Sequence record: KM389287.1
Strand: one strand, 5' to 3'
Source: Escherichia phage Phi06_2987 S
Length of the DNA: 28,879 nt
The notes beneath the pieces are model-generated. The model did no database searches. It was not told the origin of the DNA and saw only the letters and a program-made list of their open reading frames with translations. Position numbers and translations under genes: made by a program. Shown piece after piece: positions 1 through 13,422 of the stretch (position 1 is the stretch's first letter; every line of letters begins with the position of its first letter).

Positions 1-1
1 T

Positions 2-241
2 GTGACTAAATCAGAATTCCTCCAGAAGGTAGCGGTGCTGGCCGGTGAATGCCATAAGTTGGCCTGTGAGCTGGACATAGGCGATGAACGAATAGAGATG
101 TTCGAGATTTATGAAGTGCTTCGCCGAATCCAGCGGAGTGGTGCAGCCGGTGAAATGCTGGCTGCAACAAACCCTTTACTATCCCCTGGAATACCTGAGG
201 ACACTGAATGGGTAAATTTCCATAAAGAGGATCATGCCTGA
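2..241 (+). CDS. hypothetical phage early-region protein, possibly 5'-truncated by the window edge
   Basis: 79-aa ORF in the track, running from the window edge with GTG at position 2. Its TGA stop overlaps the ATG of the next small ORF (TGATG). No family recognised. Confidence 0.35.
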   Translation: MTKSEFLQKVAVLAGECHKLACELDIGDERIEMFEIYEVLRRIQRSGAAGEMLAATNPLLSPGIPEDTEWVNFHKEDHA

Positions 242-417
242 TGCCTAAGACAATCATCATAACCTTAGAAATTGATGTTCCGGAACACGCTACCGATAGC
301 GACATATCAGATTGGGTAGACGTCGAGTACGGGCAGTGTGGTGGACAAAAATTAGATAACCCCTGCCGTGGCGATGCCACCGAAGTAATAAACCATTCAT
401 GGAAATTTGAGAGCTAA
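241..417 (+). CDS. small hypothetical protein (58 aa)
   Basis: Hand-translated ORF not in the track (<60 aa): ATG 241 to TAA 415-417, MPKTIIITLEIDVPEHATDSD... It is stop/start coupled to the upstream ORF and ends 2 nt before the exonuclease ATG. Function unknown. Confidence 0.3.
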   Translation: MPKTIIITLEIDVPEHATDSDISDWVDVEYGQCGGQKLDNPCRGDATEVINHSWKFES

Positions 418-419
418 AG

Positions 420-992
420 ATGAACGACTTAATGATTGACCTCGAATCAATGGGGAAAAAGCCAAACGCGCCGATCGTCTCAGTTGGTGCTGTCTTTTTT
501 AACCCTCAAACAGGTGAACTAGGCCAAGAATTCTATACAGCCGTCTCGCTTGAAAGCTCAATGGATCAAGGCGCGGTACCGGATGGAGATACGATTCTTT
601 GGTGGCTAAAACAAAGCCCTGAAGCGCGCTCAGCTATCTGCGTTGATGATGCGATGCCTATCACTGATGCACTGTCGGAACTTAGCCATTTCATTCACCG
701 GCATGCATATAATCTCAAATACATGAAGGTCTGGGGTAACGGGGCCACCTTTGACAATGTGATTCTGCGCGGAGCTTACGAACGCGCCGGACGCATTTGC
801 CCGTGGGAATTTTGGAACGATCATGATGTACGCACGATTGTTACCCTCGGTCGCAGTGTTGGTTTCGATCCGAAGCGTGACATGCCATTCATTGGCGATG
901 TTCACAACGCCCTGGCTGATGCGCGCCATCAGGCAAAATATGTGTCAGCAATTTGGCAGAAAATTATCCCTGCCACCAGCACCAACGAGTAA
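420..992 (+). CDS. DnaQ-like 3'-5' exonuclease of the prophage-borne type
   Basis: 190-aa ORF. From memory it resembles the 3'-5' exonuclease domain proteins commonly found next to xis/int in enterobacterial prophages. It sits where lambdoid phages carry early recombination/nuclease genes. Family assignment is from recollection, not a search. Confidence 0.7.
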   Translation: MNDLMIDLESMGKKPNAPIVSVGAVFFNPQTGELGQEFYTAVSLESSMDQGAVPDGDTILWWLKQSPEARSAICVDDAMPITDALSELSHFIHRHAYNLKYMKVWGNGATFDNVILRGAYERAGRICPWEFWNDHDVRTIVTLGRSVGFDPKRDMPFIGDVHNALADARHQAKYVSAIWQKIIPATSTNE

Positions 993-1036
993 ACCACTCA
1001 GTCCGGGTGCAGCCGGGCTTTATGGAGAAGGAAACC

Positions 1037-1246
1037 ATGGCAAAGCTAATGAAAGCGAGTCTCTGGAGTAAGCGCGAATTTACCAAAGACTCCATTCCTG
1101 ACAACCGTACAATTAAACGTTGGGTCGAAAACGGATTACTCATGGGAAGGATTGTAGATGGTTCAGTTTTTGTCTATGAAACCGAAAAGTGGGGAGTTGA
1201 CTCAATTGTTAATCAGGCGGTACGTCAGTTAATAATTGAGGGTTGA
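1037..1246 (+). CDS. xis: excisionase (Xis-like)
   Basis: 69-aa product MAKLMKASLWSKREFTKDSIPDNRTIKRWVENGLL... lying immediately upstream of int. Start at 1037 chosen for the GGAGAAGGAA Shine-Dalgarno; the track's longer form from 953 overlaps the exonuclease. Size, position and basic N-terminus fit lambda-type excisionases. Confidence 0.7.
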   Translation: MAKLMKASLWSKREFTKDSIPDNRTIKRWVENGLLMGRIVDGSVFVYETEKWGVDSIVNQAVRQLIIEG

Positions 1247-1319
1247 CCATGGCAGCAAGGCCACGAAAAAAAGAATACCGCCACCTTCCTGATTATCTTT
1301 TTTTGATAAAGATCGTGGC

Positions 1320-2429
1320 GTGTATAAGTTCACGCTTATAACTGGGAAAAAGAAAACTCTCGGTTCGGATCGAGTAATGGCTATCGCCATCGCCCGAGAA
1401 TATAACCTGAGGATGCGCCCTGAAAATACACCATCGATAGATTCATTAATTCGGGAATCGGGAGGGCTGAATGGTGAAGCCCACCCGTTTTCTGAACATG
1501 TTGATCGCATTATGGAGAGAGCGATCAAAGATGAGCAGCCGTCTAAAAGCACACTTGACGATTGGAATAATGATGCCATCAGGGTTAAAGAATTTTTTAA
1601 TAACATACCCGCATGCGATATTGAGCTTGAGCACGTAAATGCCTACATACGAAATTACCATTCTGAATCGTCGGCCAATGTTCAGAACCGAAAAGTTAGC
1701 TTCCTGAAAAAGCTATTCTCTTATGCTGTTGATGAATCGCTAATGATGGATAACCCTGCAACACGGAAAAAAATGCGGCGTGTCGATAAAAAGGTCCGCC
1801 GGCGACTCACTTTGGAACAGTTCTTGGCCATACATGCAGCTGCTGAACCTTGGCTGAAGACTGCAATGGACCTTGCCATACAAACTACGCAAGCGCGCCT
1901 GGAAGTTTCCCGGATCCGGTACTCGATCAAGGAACCTCAAGAAGGGGTTTGCGGCTGTGTATGGTTCGATCAGGAGGAGGCTGGCATATTCGGAACGCTT
2001 TACATTCACCGGCAAAAAGTGCAGCACAAAGAGGCTTCACACGTCGCTATTCCGATCGGCAGGGCCCTGAAAGAGATCATCGACAACAGCAGAGACAATG
2101 TGGCCAGTCCTTATGTTGTTCACCGGCTTCTGGAAAAGAGAAGCAATCCGATAAGTAAGGAAGTTAACCACCCAACACAGGTGGCCCCTGATTATTTGAG
2201 CAGGGCATTTTCAGAGCTGCGGGACCGGATAGGTGTAGCGGCAGAATTACCTATCAAAGAAAGGCCAACTTTCCACGAAATTAGAGCGCTGGCGGCTCAT
2301 ATTTTCGAAAGACAAGGTATCGATCCGCAGGCAAGGATGGCCCATAGTGATGCAAAATCGACAAAAATTTATACCCAGAATCATGTTGAATGGGTTGAAG
2401 TACCACATGCAGAAATAAAAATGGCATAG
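1320..2429 (+). CDS. int: tyrosine integrase (lambda Int family); N-terminal arm-binding segment lies in another frame from ATG 1249
   Basis: 369-aa ORF from GTG 1320 with a tyrosine-recombinase C-terminal region. The ATG at 1249 encodes MAARPRKKEYRHLPDYLF, which matches the integrase N-terminal arm-binding consensus but hits a stop at 1339. The two frames join only if the T7 run at 1298-1304 were T8. Confidence 0.9.
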   Translation: MYKFTLITGKKKTLGSDRVMAIAIAREYNLRMRPENTPSIDSLIRESGGLNGEAHPFSEHVDRIMERAIKDEQPSKSTLDDWNNDAIRVKEFFNNIPACDIELEHVNAYIRNYHSESSANVQNRKVSFLKKLFSYAVDESLMMDNPATRKKMRRVDKKVRRRLTLEQFLAIHAAAEPWLKTAMDLAIQTTQARLEVSRIRYSIKEPQEGVCGCVWFDQEEAGIFGTLYIHRQKVQHKEASHVAIPIGRALKEIIDNSRDNVASPYVVHRLLEKRSNPISKEVNHPTQVAPDYLSRAFSELRDRIGVAAELPIKERPTFHEIRALAAHIFERQGIDPQARMAHSDAKSTKIYTQNHVEWVEVPHAEIKMA

Positions 2430-2430
2430 A

Positions 2431-2455
2431 AAAAGGCACCTGATGGTGCCTTGAA
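2431..2455 (+). terminator. hairpin just after the int stop (possible terminator)
   Basis: Perfect inverted repeat AAGGCACC-TGAT-GGTGCCTT straight after the int stop codon. There is no long T-run, so termination efficiency is uncertain. A related GGTGCC-containing motif recurs at about 2478-2495. Confidence 0.35.
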
Positions 2456-2551
2456 TAAAGTCTTGAATAAGACACCCGAAGGTGCCTTAAGTGGTTCTCT
2501 TAGCAACGAACTAAGAACGCCCACGCCTCATACCCATAATCATGAGCATCA

Positions 2552-2653
2552 AGGACTTTTGCGGATTTCCCACGTACCTTGCGGTAACGGCAGAAAACCC
2601 AACGGAACCCTTTTGGTGCCGCTTTCGAAGCGATAGATTTCAAACTCATTCAT
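2552..2653 (-). CDS. candidate small protein (33 aa) downstream of ImmA
   Basis: Hand-found ORF MNEFEIYRFESGTKRVPLGFLPLPQGTWEIRKSP preceded by a near-ideal Shine-Dalgarno (TAAGGAGGTG, 6 nt spacer, ATG). Too short for the track. Existence is unproven. Confidence 0.25.
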
Positions 2654-2807
2654 GTAACACCTCCTTACCAAGAGAGATTTTTCCCTTGAACATCTTCCCT
2701 GAAGGTGTTAGTTTCAGGCTGTCTATTGAAGCTGTTCACGGTGGTGACGCCTCTCGGATTCATCACCTTAAGACCCCTTGCATTGGTTGGCGCCAAGCAG
2801 GGGGTTT

Positions 2808-3329
2808 TTACATTTTGTCTAACTGATATCGTGCGGCCACTAATGATACTCCGCATGCCTCAGCTACATTTTCAGCACTCATACCTTTCAGAACATTGGC
2901 ATGAATAGCCGGTACTAATAGCTCACCACTGAAACATTTGGCTTGCCACTCACTACTCTCAAAAGGGCGGATTTTTACCCCTGGAGCAGAACGCGCGAAA
3001 GCAATGTTCCTGTGCATGAGAAGATGTCCCAGTTCATGTGCGGCAGTCATCCTGTCACGCCCTACCCCATTCAAAGCACCCTCGTAAATGTCTTCACGAA
3101 GAATCAATAAATGTTCCTGTGGGTAGGTGAGACCGTGCGTCTCCCCCATTTCCTTCATCCCACCGATATGGAGTTCAAAATCTGGGATCAACTGAGGCAA
3201 TGCGAACTCAATCACCTCCATAACAGGAAACATCAGACCTGTAATACCGAAGGTGCTCCGCAGAGATCTGACGATAGAACGTATTGATTCGCGGTTCTGC
3301 GGGGGTACACGATAATCTTGTCCGCTCAA
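2808..3329 (-). CDS. ImmA/IrrE-family zinc metallopeptidase
   Basis: 173-aa ORF with an HEXXH motif (AAHELGHLLMH). TTG start preceded by AGGAGG. It begins 8 nt after the XRE gene stop, so the pair is likely an operon. Confidence 0.8.
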   Translation of the reverse strand: MSGQDYRVPPQNRESIRSIVRSLRSTFGITGLMFPVMEVIEFALPQLIPDFELHIGGMKEMGETHGLTYPQEHLLILREDIYEGALNGVGRDRMTAAHELGHLLMHRNIAFARSAPGVKIRPFESSEWQAKCFSGELLVPAIHANVLKGMSAENVAEACGVSLVAARYQLDKM

Positions 3330-3337
3330 AATGCCTC

Positions 3338-3697
3338 CTACTGCTGTTTTCGATTCAAAATCTGTCGTAAATTCCGGAAGTCTTCTTCATTTAACTCATC
3401 AAAACTACGAGCGAACGCAATTGCGACTTCACGAGCATGGTCGTTCTTACCTGACAAGCTGATCTCTACTGATTGCTGAGAGTCACGAGCTGCACTGATA
3501 AGCTTTTCTTTTTGTTTTTCATCCGCATTCAGATAGCCAATGATGCTATCAAGCACGGGTTTAGTGACCGCCCTTTTACCAGTTTCGATTGCTGAAAGAT
3601 AAGACGAGGTCATACCCATAGCCTCAGCCATGCTTTTAAGCGTAAGCCCCAGGTCTATGCGCATTTTTCTTACTGTCTTACCAAACGGCGTTAACAT
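3338..3697 (-). CDS. XRE-family helix-turn-helix transcriptional regulator
   Basis: HTH signature LGLTLKSMAEAMGMTSSYLSAIETGKR. Start at 3697 (MLTPFGK...) chosen for a GGAG Shine-Dalgarno; the track ORF extends to 3745 without a ribosome-binding site. Confidence 0.8.
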   Translation of the reverse strand: MLTPFGKTVRKMRIDLGLTLKSMAEAMGMTSSYLSAIETGKRAVTKPVLDSIIGYLNADEKQKEKLISAARDSQQSVEISLSGKNDHAREVAIAFARSFDELNEEDFRNLRQILNRKQQ

Positions 3698-3769
3698 AGT
3701 TGTATCTCCAGTGTGTCCAAGACCCCCATTACTCTTGGGTCTCATTTTAAGTTAACACGCTCCCGACAG

Positions 3770-3819
3770 AAAATCAACAGAATTTTGTTGATTTCTTTCA
3801 TGTCGATTCGTTTACGAAT
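3770..3819. promoter_or_regulatory. palindromic operator candidates upstream of the XRE gene
   Basis: Perfect 7-2-7 palindrome GATTCGT-TT-ACGAATC at 3804-3819 and an imperfect inverted repeat AAATCAACAGAATTTTGTTGATTT at 3770-3793, both in the leader region of the XRE/ImmA operon. Confidence 0.3.
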
Positions 3820-3922
3820 CTTCAGTCTCGTGTTGATTGAAACGTAGGTTGTGTGAAGAAGTATGGGGAAAAACCAGCTGTAACCCATTGATGTGTATAG
3901 TGCGGATTTTGCAAAAAATGCA

Positions 3923-3938
3923 CTGTTTGCATATACAG
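3923..3938. promoter_or_regulatory. LexA (SOS) box candidate
   Basis: CTGTTTGCATATACAG fits CTGT-N8-ACAG with an AT-rich centre. It differs at one position from the box at 4731-4746. Confidence 0.5.
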
Positions 3939-3994
3939 TCAAATGTGTCGCAGCACCAGTATTTACAAGGGTTACAGCGGATTTATCGCAGTGA

Positions 3995-4040
3995 CATGGG
4001 GTGTCGGGGGTCGGAGGTTCAAATCCTCTCGTGCCGACCA
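3995..4040 (+). other. 3' portion (about 46 nt) of a tRNA-Pro gene; probable attP core
   Basis: CATGGGGTGTCGGGGGTCGGAGGTTCAAATCCTCTCGTGCCGACCA contains a T-arm (GGAGG-TTCAAAT-CCTCT), the acceptor 3' strand CGTGCCG, discriminator A and CCA. This matches my recollection of enterobacterial tRNA-Pro(UGG), including the Pro-specific G72 that implies a C1:G72 pair. No matching 5' acceptor strand or D-arm lies upstream, so it is a fragment. Confidence 0.7.
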
Positions 4041-4051
4041 AAAACACATTG

Positions 4052-4080
4052 AAAACCAGCCTCTTACGGCTGGTTTTTTT
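4052..4080 (+). terminator. rho-independent terminator following the tRNA fragment
   Basis: Stem CCAGCC / GGCTGG with loop TCTTAC, followed by T7. Confidence 0.7.
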
Positions 4081-4145
4081 ATGTTTGAAATTTGTACGGG
4101 GAATCATTGGGGAAAAATGGGGGAATAACTCCCGACATTTACACG

Positions 4146-4466
4146 CTACATTACAGGCGATTTATCGTCTTTAACTTGGTTAAGTGTATGTGTAAGAACG
4201 CCGTGTACCGTTACGTCATTCAAAGCTTCCCCTTCTATCGCTTCACCATCTTGAGTGATCAGCGCGTGGCCCATTAGCTTCACGAACTGGTTTCTCCCGT
4301 CCATGCTAACCAGCAACGTATCCCCTCCTTCTGGCTTAAGACTGACGTTTATAACGGCCCAGCCGCATGAAGTTTCAATAACCCGGCAGTTGTTATCTAC
4401 ACCGCAGATAACATCTATTGTCATGCGCTGCTCCTGGTAATCCATGGCTGGCGATGGAAACCCCAT
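4146..4466 (-). CDS. hypothetical protein (106 aa), second gene of a two-gene operon
   Basis: Track ORF whose start overlaps the stop of the upstream 79-aa ORF by 1 nt. No family recognised. Confidence 0.5.
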   Translation of the reverse strand: MGFPSPAMDYQEQRMTIDVICGVDNNCRVIETSCGWAVINVSLKPEGGDTLLVSMDGRNQFVKLMGHALITQDGEAIEGEALNDVTVHGVLTHTLNQVKDDKSPVM

Positions 4467-4705
4467 TAGAAAACCCTCCCCATGTTACGCAGGATCCAGT
4501 ATCGGTTCTCACTTCCGTTTGTCGTCTTATCGGCGAAGTCTGGCTGGTATCGTTCGATCCATGAATTTGCATCTGCCTGGCTGAAATGCCAGTGCCTCTC
4601 CTGCAGTTCAGCGATGAATCTGTCTGTATGCAGGCAGAGATAGCCCTTCGGGTTTTGCTGTATGGCCGCAATAAAAGCAGCACGAATATCCGGTTGACGA
4701 GGCAT
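4466..4705 (-). CDS. hypothetical protein (79 aa), first gene of a two-gene operon
   Basis: Track ORF with a GAGGG Shine-Dalgarno 7-8 nt upstream of the ATG. Its predicted promoter region overlaps the LexA box at 4729-4748. Confidence 0.5.
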   Translation of the reverse strand: MPRQPDIRAAFIAAIQQNPKGYLCLHTDRFIAELQERHWHFSQADANSWIERYQPDFADKTTNGSENRYWILRNMGRVF

Positions 4706-4726
4706 GAACGCACCCTCACTTGCTTA

Positions 4727-4756
4727 TTGACTGTATGCATATACAGTAGTATTTTT
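4727..4756 (+). promoter_or_regulatory. SOS-regulated promoter of the DinI-like gene (-35, LexA box, -10)
   Basis: TTGACT (-35, 4727-4732), 17-nt spacer, TATTTT (-10, 4750-4755). The LexA box gACTGTATGCATATACAGTa (4729-4748) overlaps the spacer. The gene 50 nt downstream is DinI-like, a classic LexA target. Confidence 0.6.
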
Positions 4757-4804
4757 ATGAAAACAGATCAAGCACAGGCAATTTTCACTTATGAGAGGAT
4801 CCGT

Positions 4805-5068
4805 ATGTTTGTTGAACTGGTTTATGACAAGCGAAATGTTGAGGGGCTCCAAGGGGCCAGAGAGATCATCCTGGCTGAACTAACGAAGCGGGTGCACCAG
4901 ATTTTTCCTGATGCCGAAGTGAAGGTAAAGCCGATGCAGGCGAACGGCTTAAATAGTGATGCCAGCAAAAGTGATCGGGAAAAGCTGAACCGTATGCTGG
5001 AGGAAATGTTTGATGAATCTGACATGTGGCTGACGTCTGAATTTCCAACTGTACGGCAGAATGGATAA
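4805..5068 (+). CDS. dinI: DinI-family (MsgA-like) DNA-damage-inducible protein
   Basis: 87-aa product MFVELVYDKRNVEGLQGAREIILAELTKRVHQIFPDAEVKV...DMWLTSE matches the DinI/MsgA pattern as I recall it. GAGAGGA ribosome-binding site upstream; the track ORF (from 4586) is over-extended at its 5' end. Confidence 0.85.
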   Translation: MFVELVYDKRNVEGLQGAREIILAELTKRVHQIFPDAEVKVKPMQANGLNSDASKSDREKLNRMLEEMFDESDMWLTSEFPTVRQNG

Positions 5069-5077
5069 TACTTTGAC

Positions 5078-5101
5078 GGGCAGCCCATCTAGCAGCTGCC
5101 C
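5078..5101. terminator. stem-loop between the convergent dinI-like and invertase genes
   Basis: GGGCAGC ... GCTGCCC inverted repeat with a 10-nt loop, located between the dinI-like stop and the invertase stop. Confidence 0.45.
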
Positions 5102-5110
5102 TTCAATCAT

Positions 5111-5665
5111 TTAAGCCTGTCCCACCGGAAATTTTTTATAAAGCGTGCATACAGCGACATCATAAATTATTGCCACTTGTTTTCTATCCACGCCGTTTAA
5201 TATTAATCTCCCAGCTTGTGCCCATTGCTCGGGAGTTAATTTTGGACGTCTGCCACCTATTCGCCCTTTTTCCCGCGCCGCCGCTAATCCAGCCCGGGTG
5301 CGTTCGACGATTAACTCTCTTTCCATTTCCGCCAGCGCTGACATGATGTGAAATATAAAACGCCCCATTGGACTTGATGTATCAATGCTGTCCGTGAGGC
5401 TCTTAAAGTGAATGCCCCGCTGTCGGAGTTCGTCCACCAGCAGCACTAAATTTCGCATGCTTCGCCCGAGGCGATCTAGTTTCCACACCACCAGTGTATC
5501 GCCCGCATTCAGAGTCCGCAGAAGCTTTTTGAGCGCTGGCCGGTTCGCTACCGTCCCGCTCATTTTTTCTTCAAAAACCTGTTCACATCCTGCGCGTTCG
5601 AGAGCTTGGCGCTGGAGATCTGTATTTTGGTCATTTGTTGACACTCTGACATAGCCAATTTGCAT
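5111..5665 (-). CDS. serine recombinase, DNA invertase (Gin/Pin/Hin/Cin/Min family)
   Basis: MQIGYVRVSTNDQNTDLQRQAL... is the canonical invertase N-terminus with the catalytic serine context; the C-terminal HTH region resembles Gin as I recall it. ATG at 5665 preferred over the upstream GTG at 5674. Confidence 0.9.
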   Translation of the reverse strand: MQIGYVRVSTNDQNTDLQRQALERAGCEQVFEEKMSGTVANRPALKKLLRTLNAGDTLVVWKLDRLGRSMRNLVLLVDELRQRGIHFKSLTDSIDTSSPMGRFIFHIMSALAEMERELIVERTRAGLAAAREKGRIGGRRPKLTPEQWAQAGRLILNGVDRKQVAIIYDVAVCTLYKKFPVGQA

Positions 5666-5699
5666 ATTTTTCACCCAATAAATTCTGCAAAAAAATCAG

Positions 5700-6533
5700 G
5701 TGAAGTTATCGGCCAGGCCGGCCCGTGGCAATCTATTAAACGTCGGTTTGGGAAGCAGCGCTACAAGGAACGCGTACAGCTCATCTGGCGATATACTTTC
5801 TGTAGGGGATTTGGGCTTGGGTGTTGTTGCCCCTGCCGAACAAAACCGTTACGAAAACGCGAGATTAAATGGCTTTTATAACATTGCCTCTGGTTCCGGC
5901 AACGGCCTGCCAACTAATGATGCGGGCTACGGTGTCTGGATGAACCGAAGCTCAAATTACGGCACCTTTGAGTGCTGGCTAAGTGGGCCTGTCGGGAGAA
6001 AAATGTTTAGCCAGGTTATAGGCGGAACAGCAGGTAAATGGTATGAATTTTACCATACAGCTAATACGACAAAAGCCAGTGACGGCACTATCAAAGCTGC
6101 CTCCCCCGTGGCACGAATTGTAACGAGCAAGGATGAGTGCCAGCGTGCTGATATAGCGGAGGATGGTTTTACCTGGTGCGGCTGCGGTGCGGCGAATGCC
6201 GAGGCTGAGGGCATTACTATTTCACGGCTTGATGTCGGCGTTTATGTTCTCACAGGTTCGGCAGGCCTGGCGTCTGAGGGATGGCAGTTACTTCCCCCAA
6301 TGGACCCTGGCGGCATGGGGGAACTGGGTGTAGTTGAGGCAGAGCAAACCGATAGCGGTGGGCTGACTATCCGTCTGTATAAACGCAAATACATCCTGAG
6401 CGATGAAGGTGAAATCATCAAAACCAAAGGTGAACCGATGGACGTACCGGCGAACAGCTGGATCGATGTTCGCTTGGATATGCCCGCAGATTCACTGTTT
6501 AACCAGCGGATGAGCCAGAAGCCGGAGATTTAG
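5700..6533 (+). CDS. alternative tail fiber C-terminal cassette C (likely start-less in this orientation)
   Basis: From site 1 the frame reads ...NVGLGSSATRNAY..., parallel to ...NLGLGSSATKDVG... at the crossover point in the expressed tail fiber. Its C-terminus (VPANSWIDVRLDMPADSLFNQ) and an internal block (TANTTKASDGTIKAASPV) are homologous to cassette A. The ATG at 5700 is probably fortuitous. Confidence 0.65.
   Translation: MKLSARPARGNLLNVGLGSSATRNAYSSSGDILSVGDLGLGVVAPAEQNRYENARLNGFYNIASGSGNGLPTNDAGYGVWMNRSSNYGTFECWLSGPVGRKMFSQVIGGTAGKWYEFYHTANTTKASDGTIKAASPVARIVTSKDECQRADIAEDGFTWCGCGAANAEAEGITISRLDVGVYVLTGSAGLASEGWQLLPPMDPGGMGELGVVEAEQTDSGGLTIRLYKRKYILSDEGEIIKTKGEPMDVPANSWIDVRLDMPADSLFNQRMSQKPEI
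5731..5756. other. invertase crossover site 1 (gix-like), inverted relative to sites 2 and 3
   Basis: ATCTATTAAACG-TC-GGTTTGGGAAGC. Its reverse complement shares cTTCC(c/t)AAACC-GA with sites 2 and 3. It lies 78 bp upstream of the invertase start, at the 5' end of cassette C. Confidence 0.65.
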
Positions 6534-7128
6534 CGTCGCCCTCTAATGCGCTGACGCGGATTGCCAGCTCTTTGATTGCCGCCAGCGCATCGAGCACCAG
6601 AGGATTGAGGTCTAGGGTCATTTTCCCCGACTCCTCAGCCGAGTGAACATATTGCGGATCTATCTTTTCCAGTTCCTGAGCAACAACACCTCGGCGTATC
6701 GTTTTCTCTTCATCAGCAAGGTAGTAGAAGGTCTTAAAATCCATTGCCACGATGTTGGCCAGAGACACTTCTAAATTAAGTTCTCCAGTAACCTTCTTGA
6801 AATTTATGTCCGATGTACCTGCAGACTGCAGCTGCGCCCACGGCACTGATGATTTTGGTGTTTGAGGGTCAGTGGTTGTTAGAAAACGGCTGAATACCGC
6901 ACTACCGTAAGTAATCCACAGCTGCGCAATTCGCTGCTCGGTGTAGGAACTCTGAAACCCACAGCCATTCGTAGGAGCCCACAGAGTATTGCCATCAGCA
7001 TCACTGATGAAGGATGAACTGGCATCTGTGGGCTTATTTTGGAGAACAGCACCAACCCCAAAAGCTCCCACCTGCATAACATTCCCTGCCGCAGTTCCGA
7101 CATCCTTTGTCGCACTACTTCCTAAACC
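6499..7128 (-). CDS. alternative tail fiber C-terminal cassette B with a peptidase S74-like intramolecular chaperone domain; no start codon of its own
   Basis: The frame is open from crossover site 2 (…KVGLGSSATKDVGTAAGNVMQVGAFGVGA…), with an in-frame TGA immediately upstream and no ATG before the shared motif. The C-terminal part (FKTFYYLADEEKTIRRGVVAQELEKIDPQYVH...LVLDALAAIKELAIRVSALEG) resembles the auto-cleaving chaperone domain of phage fibers and spikes. The track ORF is 6499..7077. Confidence 0.6.
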   Translation of the reverse strand, partial: GLGSSATKDVGTAAGNVMQVGAFGVGAVLQNKPTDASSSFISDADGNTLWAPTNGCGFQSSYTEQRIAQLWITYGSAVFSRFLTTTDPQTPKSSVPWAQLQSAGTSDINFKKVTGELNLEVSLANIVAMDFKTFYYLADEEKTIRRGVVAQELEKIDPQYVHSAEESGKMTLDLNPLVLDALAAIKELAIRVSALEGDAKSPASGSSAG

Positions 7129-7142
7129 GACCTTTATTCACC
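7119..7142. other. invertase crossover site 2 (gix-like)
   Basis: TTCCTAAACC-GA-CCTTTATTCACC. The conserved half-site and about 25 nt of adjacent coding sequence are nearly identical to site 3 (2 mismatches over about 37 nt). It sits 13 nt past the stop of the expressed tail fiber. Confidence 0.6.
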
Positions 7143-8489
7143 TTAATCGGCCGTCTCGGCCAGCTCTGCAGCTCTGAGTTTTTGGTTGTATAAAGAATCA
7201 ACAGGCATTTCGACACGGACGGACACAAACTGATCGGAGGGAATATCTACCGGATCGCCATCGTTGATACCCGGCAGCTCGTTCCTGGCGAATGCTGGTG
7301 CTTCAGGATGTGTGCGGTGATAGGTTTTAACCAGCACAGAGCCATCCGCGTTAACCTCATAATCCAACCAGACAAGCGCCTGCTTGTTGCGGTCGGTGGG
7401 GATGTCAAAACCGCCATCAATACCACCCCAGGCAGCGTCTGAATTTAGCCCCTCGCATCCTTCAACCAGATATTCACCAGTGCCCAGGCGGGTTACAGTG
7501 CAGCCCTCAGACTCATCGTTTGTGTGGCACTCGCCATTCATAAAAATTTTCACAACTGGTGATGCAGCTTTAAGCGTGCCATCACTGGCCCTGGTCGTAT
7601 TAGCTGTGCCGTAGAGTGTGTTAAATGTCGAGGTGCTACTTGATCCGGAGGTATTTCTCGCTAACACCCCAACAACGCCTGAATCATAGGCAACACTCAT
7701 AATCGCGTGTGTGTCTTCAGAAGCAAAATATAATGATGCTGAATATGCCCTTTGAGAGTTAACAGATTTGTTGTTGCGAAAGACTCGAGTACCTTTGTCT
7801 AAGAGGTTTGCCCATACATCAGCAACGGTATCTGCATTAAAGGATAGCCCTTTCCCCCCGAACCCAAACGCACCTACTTCCATGATGTTTCCGACGGATG
7901 TTCCGACGTCCTTTGTCGCGCTACTTCCTAAACCGAGGTTTGTGCGAGCGTCTGATGCAGTTTTCGAACCTGTTCCGCCCAGAGATACAGGCACTACACC
8001 ATCTGTAAACCCCAGGTTGCTTCTGGCGTCAGCGGCATTCGTTGCCCCGGTCCCGCCGTCCGAAACTCCAATCGCCCCATTGCTCCCTTTCTGGACCAGT
8101 TTGCCGATCGCCGGAATGGTTACACGAGCGCCGTTGATGGTGACGGTGATGTTCTGGTTTGCTGAGGTAGTGGCGAACGTCTCCCACGCGCCAATATTCT
8201 CGTCATATTCTTTGATGAGCTGCGACATTGCCTGGGCCAGTCCGTCGACGGAGATAATGTCTGACACCAGAATGGCGTATTTCTGGCCGCTCAGCGCCGG
8301 AGAAGCTGCAGGCGTAATCGTCATTGACGTGGCGCTGTTCACGGATGAAATCTGGAACAGCTGCACCGGGTTAGACATCACGATAATCGTCTGGCCAGCG
8401 CGAACCTGGCTGGCCGGTGCAGTCCAGTTTGTACCGGATCCGGTTGCGGTATTTCCGTTAATAGAGATAGTTCCTGTGTTATAAAGCAT
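7143..8489 (-). CDS. side tail fiber protein (constant N-terminal part plus currently fused C-terminal cassette A)
   Basis: Start at 8489 (MLYNTGTISINGNTATGSGTNW) with a GGAG ribosome-binding site. Contains phage tail fiber repeat-like motifs (…ARSNLGF…SLGGTGSKTASDARTNLGLGSSATKDVGT…). Crossover site 3 lies inside the gene. The track ORF extends to 8534. Confidence 0.85.
   Translation of the reverse strand: MLYNTGTISINGNTATGSGTNWTAPASQVRAGQTIIVMSNPVQLFQISSVNSATSMTITPAASPALSGQKYAILVSDIISVDGLAQAMSQLIKEYDENIGAWETFATTSANQNITVTINGARVTIPAIGKLVQKGSNGAIGVSDGGTGATNAADARSNLGFTDGVVPVSLGGTGSKTASDARTNLGLGSSATKDVGTSVGNIMEVGAFGFGGKGLSFNADTVADVWANLLDKGTRVFRNNKSVNSQRAYSASLYFASEDTHAIMSVAYDSGVVGVLARNTSGSSSTSTFNTLYGTANTTRASDGTLKAASPVVKIFMNGECHTNDESEGCTVTRLGTGEYLVEGCEGLNSDAAWGGIDGGFDIPTDRNKQALVWLDYEVNADGSVLVKTYHRTHPEAPAFARNELPGINDGDPVDIPSDQFVSVRVEMPVDSLYNQKLRAAELAETAD
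7925..7948. other. invertase crossover site 3 (gix-like), inside the tail fiber gene
   Basis: TTCCTAAACC-GA-GGTTTGTGCGAG. This resembles the Mu gix site (recalled as TTCCTGTAAACC-GA-GGTTTTGGATAA). The central dinucleotide falls in codon positions 2-3 of the Leu in ...TNLGLG.... Confidence 0.65.
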
Positions 8490-8500
8490 ATTTTCTCCAG

Positions 8501-8527
8501 GCAATAAAAAACCCCGCCGAGGCGAGG
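8501..8527 (-). terminator. rho-independent terminator between the lipoprotein gene and the tail fiber gene
   Basis: On the minus strand: CCTCGCC-TC-GGCGGGG followed by TTTTTT. Confidence 0.45.
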
Positions 8528-8547
8528 TTTGCATTGAAAGTCATGAG

Positions 8548-8781
8548 TTATTTACATGTCGTGCTTGTGAATGTGTTCGCACTTACCCAGCGCCAGTTAA
8601 AGGGATATCCGGCCCGGTATTGCGTCTGGTTGTTTTGCTTTCGAACGGCGTAAATCATAACGGTATTCTCATGGCCACCCATATATGCCGTGCCGCTGCA
8701 AATCGGTTCCTGTTTCTCAAGTACACCAGCGCAACCTGAAAGCATGGCAGCGCAAGCCATACCGATAAGAAGCTTAATCAT
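8548..8781 (-). CDS. small lipoprotein, possibly a Cor-like superinfection exclusion protein
   Basis: 77 aa. N-terminal signal peptide with lipobox LSGC (MIKLLIGMACAAMLSGCAG). Its size and position between J and the tail fiber fit Cor-type lipoproteins of lambdoid phages; the Cor assignment itself is inference. Confidence 0.55.
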   Translation of the reverse strand: MIKLLIGMACAAMLSGCAGVLEKQEPICSGTAYMGGHENTVMIYAVRKQNNQTQYRAGYPFNWRWVSANTFTSTTCK

Positions 8782-8892
8782 TTTGATGATATCCAGAGGT
8801 ATTCATGAACTTAGACAATACCAACATGAAAGAGGTGGGTATAATTGATTTGATAGATCAATTATCAGTTATTGATCGCCCAAAACGATCAA

Positions 8893-9567
8893 TCAGTCAT
8901 AGGCCGCTGTATTTATCGCGGTTAAGGAAATTCCAGTATTCGTTACCCCTCCCGGAGAGCCTGTGCCAGTGGAGGTCCCCCCTGCGTTTATCCTCGTATT
9001 GGCCCCGTCAAACCTGCACGCCGAATAAGCATTAATGGTGTAGATTGTCGGAGGCCGGGTTGAGTTATTCACAACGATGCTTTGGCCAAGCTGTGCAGGT
9101 GCAACAGCCCATGGCCCGCTAAGTGTCTGATCGATATTTATCCCTCCGTTTGCGCCAGGCGTTCCAATTGTCTGTAGGTCGGACAACACCCGGGACTCAT
9201 TAGTGAGCACCAGCTTTCCTGCCGCATCCCAGATGGCCATCCCCCATTTCGGTAACGTCTGGGGAAATATGGCAAATATATATGCGGTTAACGTGAAGCT
9301 CTTGTTATAGGGATTAACCCCCGCGACATATACATTTCCTCCGTTCCGGTAAGATATTACTGGCGTGGGCTGGGCGGTATTTGTGGTCCTGATAAATACC
9401 ATCACAGGGTAGTCAGCATTTAATGCAATATTCTGAGCAACCTGCTGCGAACTGCCATTAGCAGAGGAGTTGAAAGTGTACTTGCCGTAAAGACAAAAAG
9501 GCGTTGACTGGGGCGTTACAAATGGGTTCCCGTTGTCCATTAATATCATCGCGCCAAATTCGGCCAT
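8893..9567 (-). CDS. hypothetical phage protein (224 aa), coupled to J
   Basis: Track ORF whose start overlaps the stop of the upstream 100-aa ORF (ATGA). No signal peptide, so it is not Lom-like. Likely tail-tip associated. Confidence 0.55.
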   Translation of the reverse strand: MAEFGAMILMDNGNPFVTPQSTPFCLYGKYTFNSSANGSSQQVAQNIALNADYPVMVFIRTTNTAQPTPVISYRNGGNVYVAGVNPYNKSFTLTAYIFAIFPQTLPKWGMAIWDAAGKLVLTNESRVLSDLQTIGTPGANGGINIDQTLSGPWAVAPAQLGQSIVVNNSTRPPTIYTINAYSACRFDGANTRINAGGTSTGTGSPGGVTNTGISLTAINTAAYD

Positions 9568-9869
9568 TATGCTTTCTCCATGAAAACGACCACTTCACAC
9601 TTTGAGGCCGGATAATTACCCAGACCTACAGAAGATGCAGCGCTTACGGTTATTGTGCTCCCTGACGCGACAATGCGCCGCCCTACGCTGTTACCTCCTT
9701 CATCAAGTGAAAGAACAAAACCAACTTTCATTCCTGAGGGCACCGTAAAAGACCAGCTGCCGGAGGTTTGCCCGGCAGCCAGCTGTATTCGCCCAACGAC
9801 GGAAACGGGTTTGATGCCATAGTTGTTGGGTTTTCCTGAAGCATCCCAGGTCTGTATTCCATAAGCCAT
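9567..9869 (-). CDS. hypothetical phage protein (100 aa), coupled to J
   Basis: Track ORF starting 2 nt from the J stop. No family recognised. Confidence 0.55.
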   Translation of the reverse strand: MAYGIQTWDASGKPNNYGIKPVSVVGRIQLAAGQTSGSWSFTVPSGMKVGFVLSLDEGGNSVGRRIVASGSTITVSAASSVGLGNYPASKCEVVVFMEKA

Positions 9870-9870
9870 T

Positions 9871-12800
9871 TCAGAATACTCCCGTTAATCGGCCAACCTG
9901 CACCCTAAGAACATTACTGCCATCTTTGACGCTGATCGTCTGATTTGTCAGTTTCATGGCTCCCTCACCAGCAGTCGAACCGTAGTTCTCAAACGTCCCC
10001 CCTTTATCAAGCTTCCAGCCAGCAGAACCAGCAACATAATTGTTCGACTGGATAAAATTACCAATCTTTGCGTTGCTGATAGTGCCGTCCTGGATGAAAC
10101 TGGCCCGGATGAATGTCTGCCCGTTCTGGATCACGAACGGCAAAGCTACGCCGTTACCGGCAGCTGTCGTGACTGCGAAGCGGTCAGCCAGGAAGATGAC
10201 CTGTGACTGCATTCCGGACGGCGTATTCTCCACGCCGATCCCCATCCCTGCGGCGTAATACTGACCATTGCTGGAGACACCAACCTTGATGCTGTACATC
10301 GCCTTCAGATCACCGTTAACGTTCGCTATGGCCTGAGCGTTAGTGGTAATGGCTGATGTGTGTCCGTTGACGGTCGCTGTGATCCCGTTTATCTGCGTGG
10401 CCGTGGCCTGCTGGTAATCGGAGAACGTCTGGTTCAGGCTGTTGATAGATGCCTTGTTGCCGTTGACATCCGTCTGCAGGCTCAGCAGAGAGCGCGCCGT
10501 TGCCTCCTTCTCGTTAACGATTACCTCATCAATACGATCCAGCTGCGCACTGTTACCGGCGACCGTCGCGGAAAGCCTTTTGCGTGTGGCCACCTGCGCC
10601 AGCCCGTTCTGGATAATGGCAATGGCTGAGTTCTTAACCCCGCCCGTCATGCCGTCCATAGACACGCTGATGCTGTCGATTCGCTGGCCCAGCGCGGTAT
10701 CAGCCGTTGCGACGGTCTGCTCAAGATCTGATAGAGAGGAAGATACATCACCGACCGTGCTCGAAAGCTCATTAACACTGGTCTGAACCTGCCCAATGTC
10801 CTGCGCGTTTTTTGCGATTTCCTGCGCCTGGAGCTCAAGTTCATCGTTGGCCTGTTTGATGTCGTCAGCCATGCCAGCAATTTTTTCATTGCTGTCCACC
10901 GCGTTCTCGATCAGGTCTTTGAACGTATCGGAGTCTTTAATTTCCTCCAGAATCACATCTGTGATATCGGAAACATCGATGCTGGCCTGTCCTCGCACCC
11001 ATTCTGTGTACCCTGATTCGTTGCCGCTGCGGTCCACCAGCTGCGCGCGGTACCAGAAAATCTGCCCAGCCTTAAGGCCCATCTGCTGATATTTGCGCTG
11101 CGGGTAAGGCACATCGGCCAGCAGCATGGCATCGTCTTCAGTACCGGTCAGGCTGTACTGAATTTCCGTCTTCAGCGTGTCTTCGGTATTCGCCGGGAAT
11201 CCCCAGTTCAGCTCAATACCGAATACCACGTTTTCAGAAGCGATGAAGCCAACCGGCTTCGGTGGGTTTCCCACTTTACCCGTCAACGTTTTCTCTTCTG
11301 AATAGCCCCACCCAGATGAAATTTCGGCGGCATTGATGGCACGCACGCGAACCAGGTAGCGTCCTGCATAAATCCCCGGAACATCGAATGACGTGGTGGA
11401 GCTGCGCGGCACATTCACCCAGTTCCCGTCATTGCGACGCCACTGTGCCTCATACGCGATAGCATTTTTCGCCTGGTCCCAGCTGACGCGCATGGTCTCA
11501 ACGCTGATATTCTGCTGAACGACAGAAAACGAACTGATCGCGATATTAGCTGGCGGGGACTGATTACCGGGCGGAATTACACTTATTGGCCGCTGGTCGA
11601 CGATGGCGCCGGTATCGATACGGGCATACTTATCCGGATCGTGAAAAGCACCAGTAATAGAAAACGTGCCGTCGTTATTATCAGAGACGCTGATAACACA
11701 ATATTGCTGTGCATAAAGCTCGTCGGATTCGACAATCCATACCGATTCGACTGCCGGTGTTTCGCTGTATGCCGTGGTCACGGTGACAGCCCGGCCGTTT
11801 ACGCTCTGAATCGTCCTGCTCTGCGATGCGCCAGACGGCAGGTTAACCATAAGACGGCTTCCGGCAACGGCAGCGGAATCACGATCAAGCGTGATAACGC
11901 GACCATTAACCGCGCTGATACGCCCTCCCATCACCTTTCCGGATAACAGCTCATCGGCAACCGCGATAATATAACCAGGCTGTGGAATGTTGCCGTCCAG
12001 ACCAACATCAAACGATACGATGCGATCCTTGTTATTGGTCTGAATCCCCCAGCGCCCCTTACGGTTTGCCTCAGACTGCCGGGTACAGCCAATGGCTGTC
12101 ATCTCGAGCTGGTTTGTGCCAAAGCGAGCGACGAGCTCCTGTTCAAAAACCGGCTCCATCGCATCTGCGTAGGCATTACCCGGATCTGACCAGGAAACCA
12201 GCGCGGTGGTATAGCGGTTTTTAGTGGTGCTGCCAGAATAGGTAAAGCGGCCGTCAACCACGTTAGCGCGGGTGTAGCTGTAATCAACATCGCGGGGCAT
12301 ATCTGCCAGTGCAACGATTTGATTGCCGCCCCAGTACGTCATGCCACGGAATATCGCCGCAAAATCACGTAACACGGTATAGGCGTCATTCCTCTCCTGC
12401 ACGTACACGTTACAGGTATAGCGAGGCTCGGTGCCGCTACCGCCTTTACCATCAGGAACCAGCTGATCGCAATATTGTGCGACCTGGTAAAGCGTCCATT
12501 TATCAATATTTGCCGCCGTCAGGCGGTCGCCAAGTCCAAAACGGTCGCTCACCACCAGATCGTAAAAAATCCACGCCGGATTGTCCGTCCATGCCCACTT
12601 AAACGCCCCCGTCCAGGTACCGCTATAGGTCCGGGTTTCCGGATCGTAAGTATCCGGCACGCGGATAACGCGCCCGCGCGGTTCACAGGAAATTTGCGGG
12701 ATGGAGCCGTTAAACTGGCTTGAATCGAATTCAATGTACAGCAGCGCGGTGTTTGGATAGCGCAGTTTGGCATCGATTACCTCCGTGTAGCTCTGCAGCG

Positions 12801-13422
12801 TCATCGTGTCGCCAATTTTCGCACTGTTCGCATCTGCGGTGAGCTTACGAAGACGTACCGTCCAGGTACTTCCCGCCTGCGGTAAGTCGATACGGTGGCT
12901 GCGTTCGTAGCCTGACGTGGTTTTCCCGGTGACGCTGGTATTAAGCACGGTCTGCCAGGTACCGCCATCTGTCTGCAGATCGATAGCGTAATTAATCGAA
13001 TAGCCGACCAGATCGCCGTCGTCCTCCTGTTTAAACAGTGATGGCCATTTGAGGCGCAGACGAATGGCTGACAGCTGGGTGTTGGTAAAGGTATGCGTCC
13101 AGGCCGTAGCGCTTGAAACTTCGGTACCTACGCTGATTTCATTCTCGGTACCGGGGATGCCCTGAATATACTTTTGAGCCTGAGTCCCCGGGCGGAACTC
13201 CCATGCCACGCCGCTGAAGTTTTGCGATCCGTCTGCATTCTCCAGTGGCGTGCCGTCAAGATAGATATCTTTAGCCGTTAACTGCCCCGCAAATTCCCCT
13301 TCTCCCAGCGCAACAAGAATCTTGGCCTTCGCTACGGACTGGAGATCGTCTGGCTGTTCTGTAGGGGTACGGGAACTGGAACTGCCGCCCTTGCGGCCTC
13401 TAATCGGAGTGGAAGTAGCCAT
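9871..13422 (-). CDS. J: host specificity / central tail fiber protein J
   Basis: 1183 aa. The central region (YTEVIDAKLRYPNTAL...YCDQLVPDGKGGSGTEPRYTCNVY) aligns with lambda gpJ as I recall it. It sits at the end of the tail operon. Confidence 0.95.
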   Translation of the reverse strand: MATSTPIRGRKGGSSSSRTPTEQPDDLQSVAKAKILVALGEGEFAGQLTAKDIYLDGTPLENADGSQNFSGVAWEFRPGTQAQKYIQGIPGTENEISVGTEVSSATAWTHTFTNTQLSAIRLRLKWPSLFKQEDDGDLVGYSINYAIDLQTDGGTWQTVLNTSVTGKTTSGYERSHRIDLPQAGSTWTVRLRKLTADANSAKIGDTMTLQSYTEVIDAKLRYPNTALLYIEFDSSQFNGSIPQISCEPRGRVIRVPDTYDPETRTYSGTWTGAFKWAWTDNPAWIFYDLVVSDRFGLGDRLTAANIDKWTLYQVAQYCDQLVPDGKGGSGTEPRYTCNVYVQERNDAYTVLRDFAAIFRGMTYWGGNQIVALADMPRDVDYSYTRANVVDGRFTYSGSTTKNRYTTALVSWSDPGNAYADAMEPVFEQELVARFGTNQLEMTAIGCTRQSEANRKGRWGIQTNNKDRIVSFDVGLDGNIPQPGYIIAVADELLSGKVMGGRISAVNGRVITLDRDSAAVAGSRLMVNLPSGASQSRTIQSVNGRAVTVTTAYSETPAVESVWIVESDELYAQQYCVISVSDNNDGTFSITGAFHDPDKYARIDTGAIVDQRPISVIPPGNQSPPANIAISSFSVVQQNISVETMRVSWDQAKNAIAYEAQWRRNDGNWVNVPRSSTTSFDVPGIYAGRYLVRVRAINAAEISSGWGYSEEKTLTGKVGNPPKPVGFIASENVVFGIELNWGFPANTEDTLKTEIQYSLTGTEDDAMLLADVPYPQRKYQQMGLKAGQIFWYRAQLVDRSGNESGYTEWVRGQASIDVSDITDVILEEIKDSDTFKDLIENAVDSNEKIAGMADDIKQANDELELQAQEIAKNAQDIGQVQTSVNELSSTVGDVSSSLSDLEQTVATADTALGQRIDSISVSMDGMTGGVKNSAIAIIQNGLAQVATRKRLSATVAGNSAQLDRIDEVIVNEKEATARSLLSLQTDVNGNKASINSLNQTFSDYQQATATQINGITATVNGHTSAITTNAQAIANVNGDLKAMYSIKVGVSSNGQYYAAGMGIGVENTPSGMQSQVIFLADRFAVTTAAGNGVALPFVIQNGQTFIRASFIQDGTISNAKIGNFIQSNNYVAGSAGWKLDKGGTFENYGSTAGEGAMKLTNQTISVKDGSNVLRVQVGRLTGVF

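Follow-up and report, generated by a model that had tools for sequence, protein, structure and literature searches.

A probable serine-invertase-driven multiple-inversion switch of the side tail fiber in a lambda-like Escherichia coli prophage

Tail fiber genes whose 3′ ends are exchanged by DNA inversion form an established kind of element, known from Mu, P1, p15B, a P2-like prophage of enteropathogenic Escherichia coli (EPEC), and FRφ. The last of these, a lambda-like temperate phage of Enterobacter sp. BIDMC93 (preprint 2025, Nat Microbiol 2026), has a tail fiber "shufflon" whose three C-terminal isoforms occur at ∼50:25:25 in long reads and whose state is locked by deletion of gin; only isoform C2 infects the tested host, via FhuA, and loci with up to six paralogs are found among FRφ relatives (PMC13418256). 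In the P2-like prophage of EPEC E2348/69, described in 2014, three partly homologous inverted repeats allow two overlapping inversions, and four coexisting variants, with three C-termini of one tail fiber protein, were confirmed by polymerase chain reaction (PMC4272514). Min of plasmid p15B is likewise cited as a multiple-inversion system (Sandmeier et al. 1990, cited in PMC5903667). Here, we analyzed positions 5111-8489 of KM389287.1 (Escherichia phage Phi06_2987 S; "the window" hereafter means this whole stretch of 28,879 bp), and we hold with high confidence that the side tail fiber locus found there is a serine-invertase-driven multiple-inversion switch of a lambda-like E. coli prophage. 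It is a further, well-documented example of the established kind, and what it contributes is this new example together with a picture of how the module has spread through Enterobacteriaceae.

The locus comprises a constant N-terminal fiber part, three C-terminal cassettes (A, B, and C), three crossover sites, and a serine invertase gene (Table 1). Its architecture had been proposed in an earlier reading of the DNA alone (the original prediction), whose cassette coordinates were all correct. Allowing up to two mismatches, the pattern TCGGTTTRGGAAGYAGYGC has three matches in the window, at 5743-5761 on the plus strand and at 7112-7130 and 7918-7936 on the minus strand, and no match at the same tolerance in any of 100 dinucleotide-preserving shuffles; the three sites also share TC-GGTTTRGGAAGYAGYGC, which is present nowhere else in the window. 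The sites are unique in the window and nonrandom. They coincide with the centers originally placed near 5743, 7129, and 7935, and the strands of the matches bear out the proposal that site 1 has the opposite orientation to sites 2 and 3.

Each site is 26 bp long. Site 3, which encodes the peptide NLGLGSS, is built of two 12-bp halves, imperfect inverted repeats of each other, that flank a 2-bp core, and Mu gixL, read in the coding orientation, has the same inner 13 bp (AAACCTCGGTTTA). The pix sites of e14 are of the same build (CTCTCGAAAACC TT GGTTTGGGAGAA and TTTTCATAAACG TT GGTTTGGGAGAA), the alignment with gix and pix sites shows a common AAACC-NN-GGTTT core, and the peptide NLGL is encoded at the crossover site in Mu, e14, and the window alike. 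A repeat search recovered the surrounding similarity as (i) a direct repeat of 84 nt (7052-7135 and 7858-7941, 76% identical) and (ii) an inverted repeat of 30 nt (5737-5766 and 7107-7136, 83% complementary). The left half of site 1 stays beside the invertase gene in every isomer, while the right half moves with its cassette. Left half-sites across Enterobacteriaceae fall into three classes (constant-side, invertase-side, and internal) and are joined to many right, cassette-bearing halves; as a strict regular expression, TCGGTTTNGG, missed variant sites such as GGTTTGGTAGAT and GCTTTGGGAAGT, relaxed scoring was used instead.

Inversion was examined by comparing the window with public assemblies carrying the identical invertase or the identical cassette B open reading frame (ORF), several of which contain the same prophage at the same tRNA-Pro/yejM locus; loci from the assemblies are denoted by L numbers. 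In four loci from four sample accessions (L016, L017, L021, and L022), cassette C is fused to the constant part. Their flanks (window 3995-5769 and 7909-8736) are colinear with the window at 99.3-99.8% identity, the 2204-nt stretch 5738-7941 is inverted at 99.86-99.91% identity, and the two junctions are ATCTATTAAACG TC + A and CTCGCACAAACC TC + C, with site 2 unchanged; this is the exact reciprocal product of an exchange between sites 1 and 3. Two further loci, L020 and L015 (the latter on one scaffold with L013), have a shorter inversion, of 5737-7136 alone (99.86% identity), and their junctions, ATCTATTAAACG TC + B and GGTGAATAAAGG TC + C, are those of the site 1 × site 2 product. Every exchange is confined to the 7 nt TCGGTTT, between diagnostic differences on both sides, and sites 1 and 2, although their outer halves are degenerate (AAACG and AAAGG), are both observed exchange points. 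The exact 448-residue fiber of the window is not on record in the public collection, and isomer I is therefore documented by the window alone. The switch has demonstrably operated in nature, with isomers I, II, and III of this element seen, and the alternative inversion states anticipated by the original prediction thus exist in four (1 × 3) and two (1 × 2) assemblies.

Two-cassette relatives have cassette B fused to related constant parts. L014 has B (99.0% identical) on the constant-side half-site; in L108-L111, which lack cassette A, a C-B module 99.5% identical to window 5475-7130 follows straight on a different constant part (87-88% identical), with B fused. A search with a hypothetical constant + B fusion retrieved full-length relatives (89% identical, 100% coverage) that are common in the protein database. 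Taken together, these fusions indicate that B is a live cassette. The L108-L111 arrangement may be what remains after sites 2 and 3, which are direct repeats, recombine with loss of the DNA between them, or an ancestor that preceded the gain of A; resolution between these two sites may turn three-cassette into two-cassette elements. In L018 and L019, the same C-B module stands in the opposite orientation, with C fused. Another contig, L024 (C-B-site 2-A, without flanks), was set aside, since isomers I and II cannot be distinguished on it and its end at site 3 is too weak an indication of a mixed population.

A second three-cassette element, present in complete E. coli chromosomes, displays the same three states. 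Its whole 2307-nt segment is flipped between L001 and L006, at 99.7% identity, and its inner segment is flipped in L012 relative to L001.

The invertase gene, which had been proposed to sit just outside site 1, lies 78 bp from it, and its product matches the Pfam domains Resolvase (E = 6e-50) and HTH_7 (E = 1e-11). Over residues 1-182 it aligns without gaps to the Gin structures 3uj3 (E = 1e-86) and 4m6f, while the match to gamma-delta resolvase is weaker (E = 1e-29); it is 74% identical to Mu Gin and 78% identical to e14 PinE. The catalytic Ser9, as well as R7, D64, R65, R68, M114, and the GGR minor-groove motif, is present, and the segments YVRVSTNDQ and DRLGRS are conserved with the Gin structures. 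The protein is, on homology, an intact member of the Gin/Pin (Din) family. An in-frame GTG at 5674, upstream of the likely start (ORF 5111-5674, minus strand), would yield a protein of 187 residues. The exact 184-residue protein occurs in 544 blocks of the public collection, and Enterobacter species contain invertases 95-98% identical to it. Invertases 69-95% identical to it were also seen on short contigs (L036, L042, and L066) that were either binned as Chitinophaga or Mobilitalea metagenome-assembled genomes or present in a Moraxella osloensis assembly; these contigs are most likely mis-binned or contaminating enterobacterial DNA.

The Fis-bound enhancers of Gin and Hin are located in the 5′ part of the invertase gene. 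In the same part of the window gene, two patches (coding-sequence nt ∼13-48 and ∼73-108) show synonymous constraint, with a codon identity of 0.70-0.74 compared with 0.26-0.45 in the remainder of the gene, as measured by identical codons at amino-acid-identical positions among 47 thinned invertase homologs. Because the known enhancers of Gin and Hin occupy this part of the gene, the two patches probably represent an embedded Fis enhancer. Assigning Fis sites by the degenerate consensus was tried and abandoned: one match, centered at coding-sequence nt 78, is common to Mu and the window, candidate 15-mers are also centered at 29 and 101, and there is no basis for choosing among them. An M114V substitution makes Gin Fis-independent (PMC3575834), and the window invertase has the wild-type M114.

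All three cassettes begin with the half-site TC GGTTTRGGAAG, encoding (L)GLGSS, and in each the frame after TC reads GLGSSAT, which upholds the claim that any of them would join the constant part in frame. The constant part aligns with positions 2-199 of phrog_1591 and 4-162 of phrog_1980, and its counterpart in L016, fused to C, is 99.5% identical. A domain search detected Phage_tail_C_2 in A and C (E = 8e-32 for C) and Peptidase_S74 in B (E = 4e-9); C matches positions 201-459 of phrog_1591 and B positions 212-431 of phrog_1980, while A and C are 28% identical to each other. Fusions of the constant part with A or C span phrog_1591 end to end, with the join at around position 200, and the fusion with B covers phrog_1980. 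No tfa ORF was found in 5745-7934, the cassettes being single partial ORFs. The statement that B and C have no start codon of their own held for the cassette boundaries, where neither has one, but not for their surroundings: an ORF from an in-frame GTG at 5700 passes through site 1 into C (277 residues), and an internal ATG at 7077 opens a 192-residue ORF in B. Both ORFs are annotated as genes by gene callers, and neither starts at a cassette boundary.

Because site 1 faces the opposite way to sites 2 and 3, either of two overlapping segments, 5743-7130 and 5743-7936, can flip. Simulated inversions at TC gave four isomers in the cycle I-II-IV-III-I, namely I (C> <B <A; the window state, A expressed), II (A> B> <C; C expressed), III (B> <C <A; A expressed), and IV (A> C> <B; B expressed). 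The fibers of 448 residues (A; I and III), 447 residues (C; II), and 394 residues (B; IV) are all open in frame, and equal occupancy of the isomers predicts A:B:C = 2:1:1. The original route to B, by a 1 × 3 inversion followed by recombination of site 2 against the junction site, proved correct, and B can alternatively be reached by 1 × 2 and then 1 × 3. Together with the natural 1 × 3 and 1 × 2 products, the B-fused relatives, and the intact invertase, these results sustain the original view of a Min-type multiple-inversion switch to which each cassette can be joined. Enhancer-dependent invertases disfavor deletion between direct repeats; sites 2 and 3 form such a pair in isomer I, which would protect cassette A.

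In the mechanism that we propose, the invertase would bind inverted sites in pairs, cleave the central TC/GA, and swap half-sites, probably with the assistance of Fis bound to the enhancer inside the invertase gene. We infer that the adjacent invertase catalyzes the inversions and that Fis and the enhancer are required. A lysogen population and the phage burst from it would then carry fibers with three different tips, two of them with divergent Phage_tail_C_2 domains and one with a self-cleaving S74 chaperone domain. Three receptor specificities likely result from these tips, and host range would be expected to change upon switching.

Table 1. Features of the invertible side tail fiber locus and of its surroundings in the window
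Feature	Coordinates	Strand	Remarks
Constant N-terminal part, side tail fiber	7936-8489	-	184-185 residues (185 codons)
Cassette A	7143-7934	-	263 residues; Phage_tail_C_2; fused to constant part and expressed in window state
Cassette B	6499-7128	-	209 residues; Peptidase_S74 intramolecular chaperone; silent, behind the stop codon of A
Cassette C	5745-6533	+	262 residues; Phage_tail_C_2 C-terminal domain; silent
Crossover site 1	5731-5756	+	ATCTATTAAACG TC GGTTTGGGAAGC; center 5743-5744; adjoins invertase
Crossover site 2	7117-7142	-	GGTGAATAAAGG TC GGTTTAGGAAGT; center 7129-7130; internal, directly 3′ of the stop codon of A
Crossover site 3	7923-7948	-	CTCGCACAAACC TC GGTTTAGGAAGT; center 7935-7936; end of constant part
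Serine DNA invertase, Gin/Pin/Cin/Hin type	5111-5665	-	184 residues; likely start ATG 5665
Candidate recombinational enhancer (Fis-binding region)	5558-5653	-	two synonymous-conservation patches, 5′ end of invertase gene
Host-specificity protein J	9871-13422	-	upstream of fiber in late operon
cor	8548-8781	-	PHROG Cor exclusion protein
Intrinsic-terminator hairpin, strong	8509-8530	-	between cor and tail fiber start codon
DinI-family gene	4805-5068	+	between invertase and attachment site
Small ORF	4466-4705	-	between invertase and attachment site
Small ORF	4146-4466	-	between invertase and attachment site
tRNA-Pro-like gene, 3′ fragment	3995-4041		marks prophage end
3′-5′ exonuclease	420-992		island left of tRNA-Pro fragment
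Tyrosine integrase	1320-2429		island; sole tyrosine recombinase in window
ImmA/IrrE and helix-turn-helix gene pair	2808-3745		island left of tRNA-Pro fragment

Several points weigh against the multiple-inversion switch. The exact Fis sites are not assignable by the degenerate consensus, a simple promoter scan found no sigma-70 promoter for the invertase, isomer IV (the exact constant part joined to B) was not found in public data, and the evidence for inversion comes from assemblies of other samples rather than from reads of the source strain of the window. Further, the outer halves of sites 1 and 2, ATCTATTAAACG and GGTGAATAAAGG, fit the gix/hix half-site consensus poorly, and recombination rates may therefore be unequal. 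That GGTGAATAAAGG is the poorest fit of all, and that isomer IV is missing, would also suit a two-state switch between sites 1 and 3, with site 2 and cassette B as decayed leftovers that have dropped out of it. This we find scarcely credible, as L015 and L020 are exact site 1 × site 2 recombinants and, in the second element, the inner segment is likewise flipped in L012 as compared with L001; moreover, the internal half-site is conserved and paired with different cassettes in many loci, and B is an intact ORF whose identical 192-residue product occurs on 14 contigs and which is fused and expressed in relatives. We attach just as slight a probability to general RecA-dependent homologous recombination between the short repeats at the 5′ ends of the cassettes, with the invertase as an incidental neighbor, even though the cassettes share up to 84 nt at 76% identity and mosaic cassettes (e.g., in L005 and L023) resemble products of homologous exchange. 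RecA would not act efficiently on a match as short as the ∼19 nt, with two mismatches, that sites 1 and 3 share; TCGGTTT, in the middle of the gix-like site, holds every junction observed; invertases of this family are linked to such sites in dozens of loci; and in FRφ deletion of gin abolishes recombination (PMC13418256). A pure coding-sequence duplication as the origin of the shared sequence was rejected along with these two explanations.

A different question is whom the module serves. PinQ-driven inversion in e14 gives StfE2, which blocks T2 adsorption (PMC12529663), and by analogy inversion here could mainly serve the lysogen, rather than the virion, by making chimeric fiber fragments that mask receptors against other phages. 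ORFs beginning outside site 1 do read into whichever cassette is there, and napA-side prophage remnants (L013/L015 in ERZ28635978 and L020 in ERZ17292935) no longer have the constant fiber part, site 3, or ∼35 codons at the start of A but retain cassettes B and C, sites 1 and 2, and an intact invertase. We nevertheless judge this role very unlikely: the prophage tail and head region in the window looks complete, the fiber gene lies in the late operon after J and cor, the fusions match full-length fiber families (phrog_1591 and phrog_1980), and a promoter scan found no expression signals for the silent ORFs; both napA-side remnants, being in the same state, give no sign of switching after decay. 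A broader form of the idea, in which the invertase and cassettes are a portable module that outlives its phage and is adopted by the host as a phase-variable, receptor-masking defense in the manner of PinQ/StfE2, we consider somewhat less improbable, though still unlikely. If the napA-side remnants still switch and express chimeric ORFs, the module may be a defense rather than a host-range device. For the window, the invertase-driven switch of a phage side tail fiber remains our preferred reading.

The invertible fiber locus lies at the tail end of an E. coli prophage of the lambda-like (HK97/mEp-like) kind. Reading along the minus strand, the order is J, two small tail ORFs, cor, the hairpin terminator, and the 448-residue side tail fiber gene (8489-7143); 3′ of the fiber stop follow fragment B on the same strand, fragment C on the opposite strand, and then the serine recombinase gene, which reads away from both. 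As the terminator precedes the fiber start, expression of the fiber and its cassettes would depend on read-through, presumably by late antitermination. The DinI-family gene and two small ORFs beside the invertase are conserved neighbors of it in many loci. Homology with other copies of the prophage begins exactly at the tRNA-Pro fragment, to the left of which (1-3990) lies a separate integrated island with its own tyrosine integrase. The island is 100% identical to several E. coli chromosomes in which this prophage does not adjoin it, indicating that the two elements were integrated in tandem; to judge by the same identity, the host is E. coli. Searches of the window with ARAGORN and Rfam yielded no RNA genes.

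Among the loci examined, the number of cassettes ranges from two to four. A four-cassette relative, L010 (GCA_000534195.1, 2390-5922), has the CTCGCACAAACC half-site duplicated in inverted orientation inside its segment, and its silent ORFs, of 293 residues, include part of the constant region. L007 and L039 (Pseudocitrobacter vendiensis) each have four crossover sites and four cassettes. L058 (Pseudocitrobacter faecalis, 4872-12139) contains a homologous fiber, a silent cassette, and an invertase ORF cut short at 146 residues, followed downstream by genes for a 677-residue flagellin (fliC) and a 312-residue TnpB-like protein (OrfB_IS605); its invertase is 92% identical to that of the window over residues 1-157. 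The Enterobacter locus of P0016 was set aside, as it proved to be a two-cassette element without fliC-tldR.

A multi-state host-range switch is thus recognizable from raw sequence alone, and public assemblies already contain its alternative states, so that a single reference assembly misreports the tail fiber of such prophages. Annotation pipelines, for their part, label the silent cassettes as separate "tail fiber domain-containing" genes. The module is also a natural scaffold on which structurally unrelated receptor-binding tips are exchanged at the NLGLGSS junction with no separate chaperone genes, and this one-junction exchange makes it useful for host-range engineering in phage biology and phage therapy.

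Set against the known systems, the window element is most like that of FRφ, compared here by its published description, which is also lambda-like, with a constant fiber N-terminus, three cassettes (C1-C3), and a gin-type gene just downstream, and whose 50:25:25 isoforms are in the ratio expected from four equally populated isomers. The window phage differs in residing in E. coli at a tRNA-Pro site and in lacking the fliC-tldR cargo; the FRφ-like prophage at L058, with its fliC and TnpB-like genes, carries a module homologous to that of the window and provides an indirect sequence link to FRφ. The EPEC E2348/69 switch follows an identical logic but belongs to a P2-like myovirus prophage, whereas a lambda-like siphovirus side fiber is switched here. 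Min of p15B shares the single Din-family invertase, more than two sites, overlapping segments, and alternative fiber 3′ ends; it reportedly has six mix sites, hundreds of isomers, and tail-fiber-assembly genes in its segments, in contrast to the three sites, four isomers, single partial ORFs, and absence of a separate tfa gene in the window element. With Mu (G/Gin) and e14 (P/PinE), the locus has in common an invertase gene placed immediately beyond the segment and transcribed away from it, as well as the AAACC-NN-GGTTT core, whose central dinucleotide is TC in Mu gix, as here, but TT in e14. Both of those systems are two-site, two-state switches, with a fiber 3′ part and a tfa/U chaperone gene in each half of the segment. 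The window element therefore stands apart from Mu, P1, e14, and p15B in that its cassettes are without tfa genes and mix unrelated tip folds. Finally, the R64 shufflon resembles it in that several invertible segments exchange the C-terminus of a surface adhesin, but there the tyrosine recombinase Rci acts on sfx sites; the window recombinase is a serine invertase, and "shufflon" is thus just a loose label for this switch.

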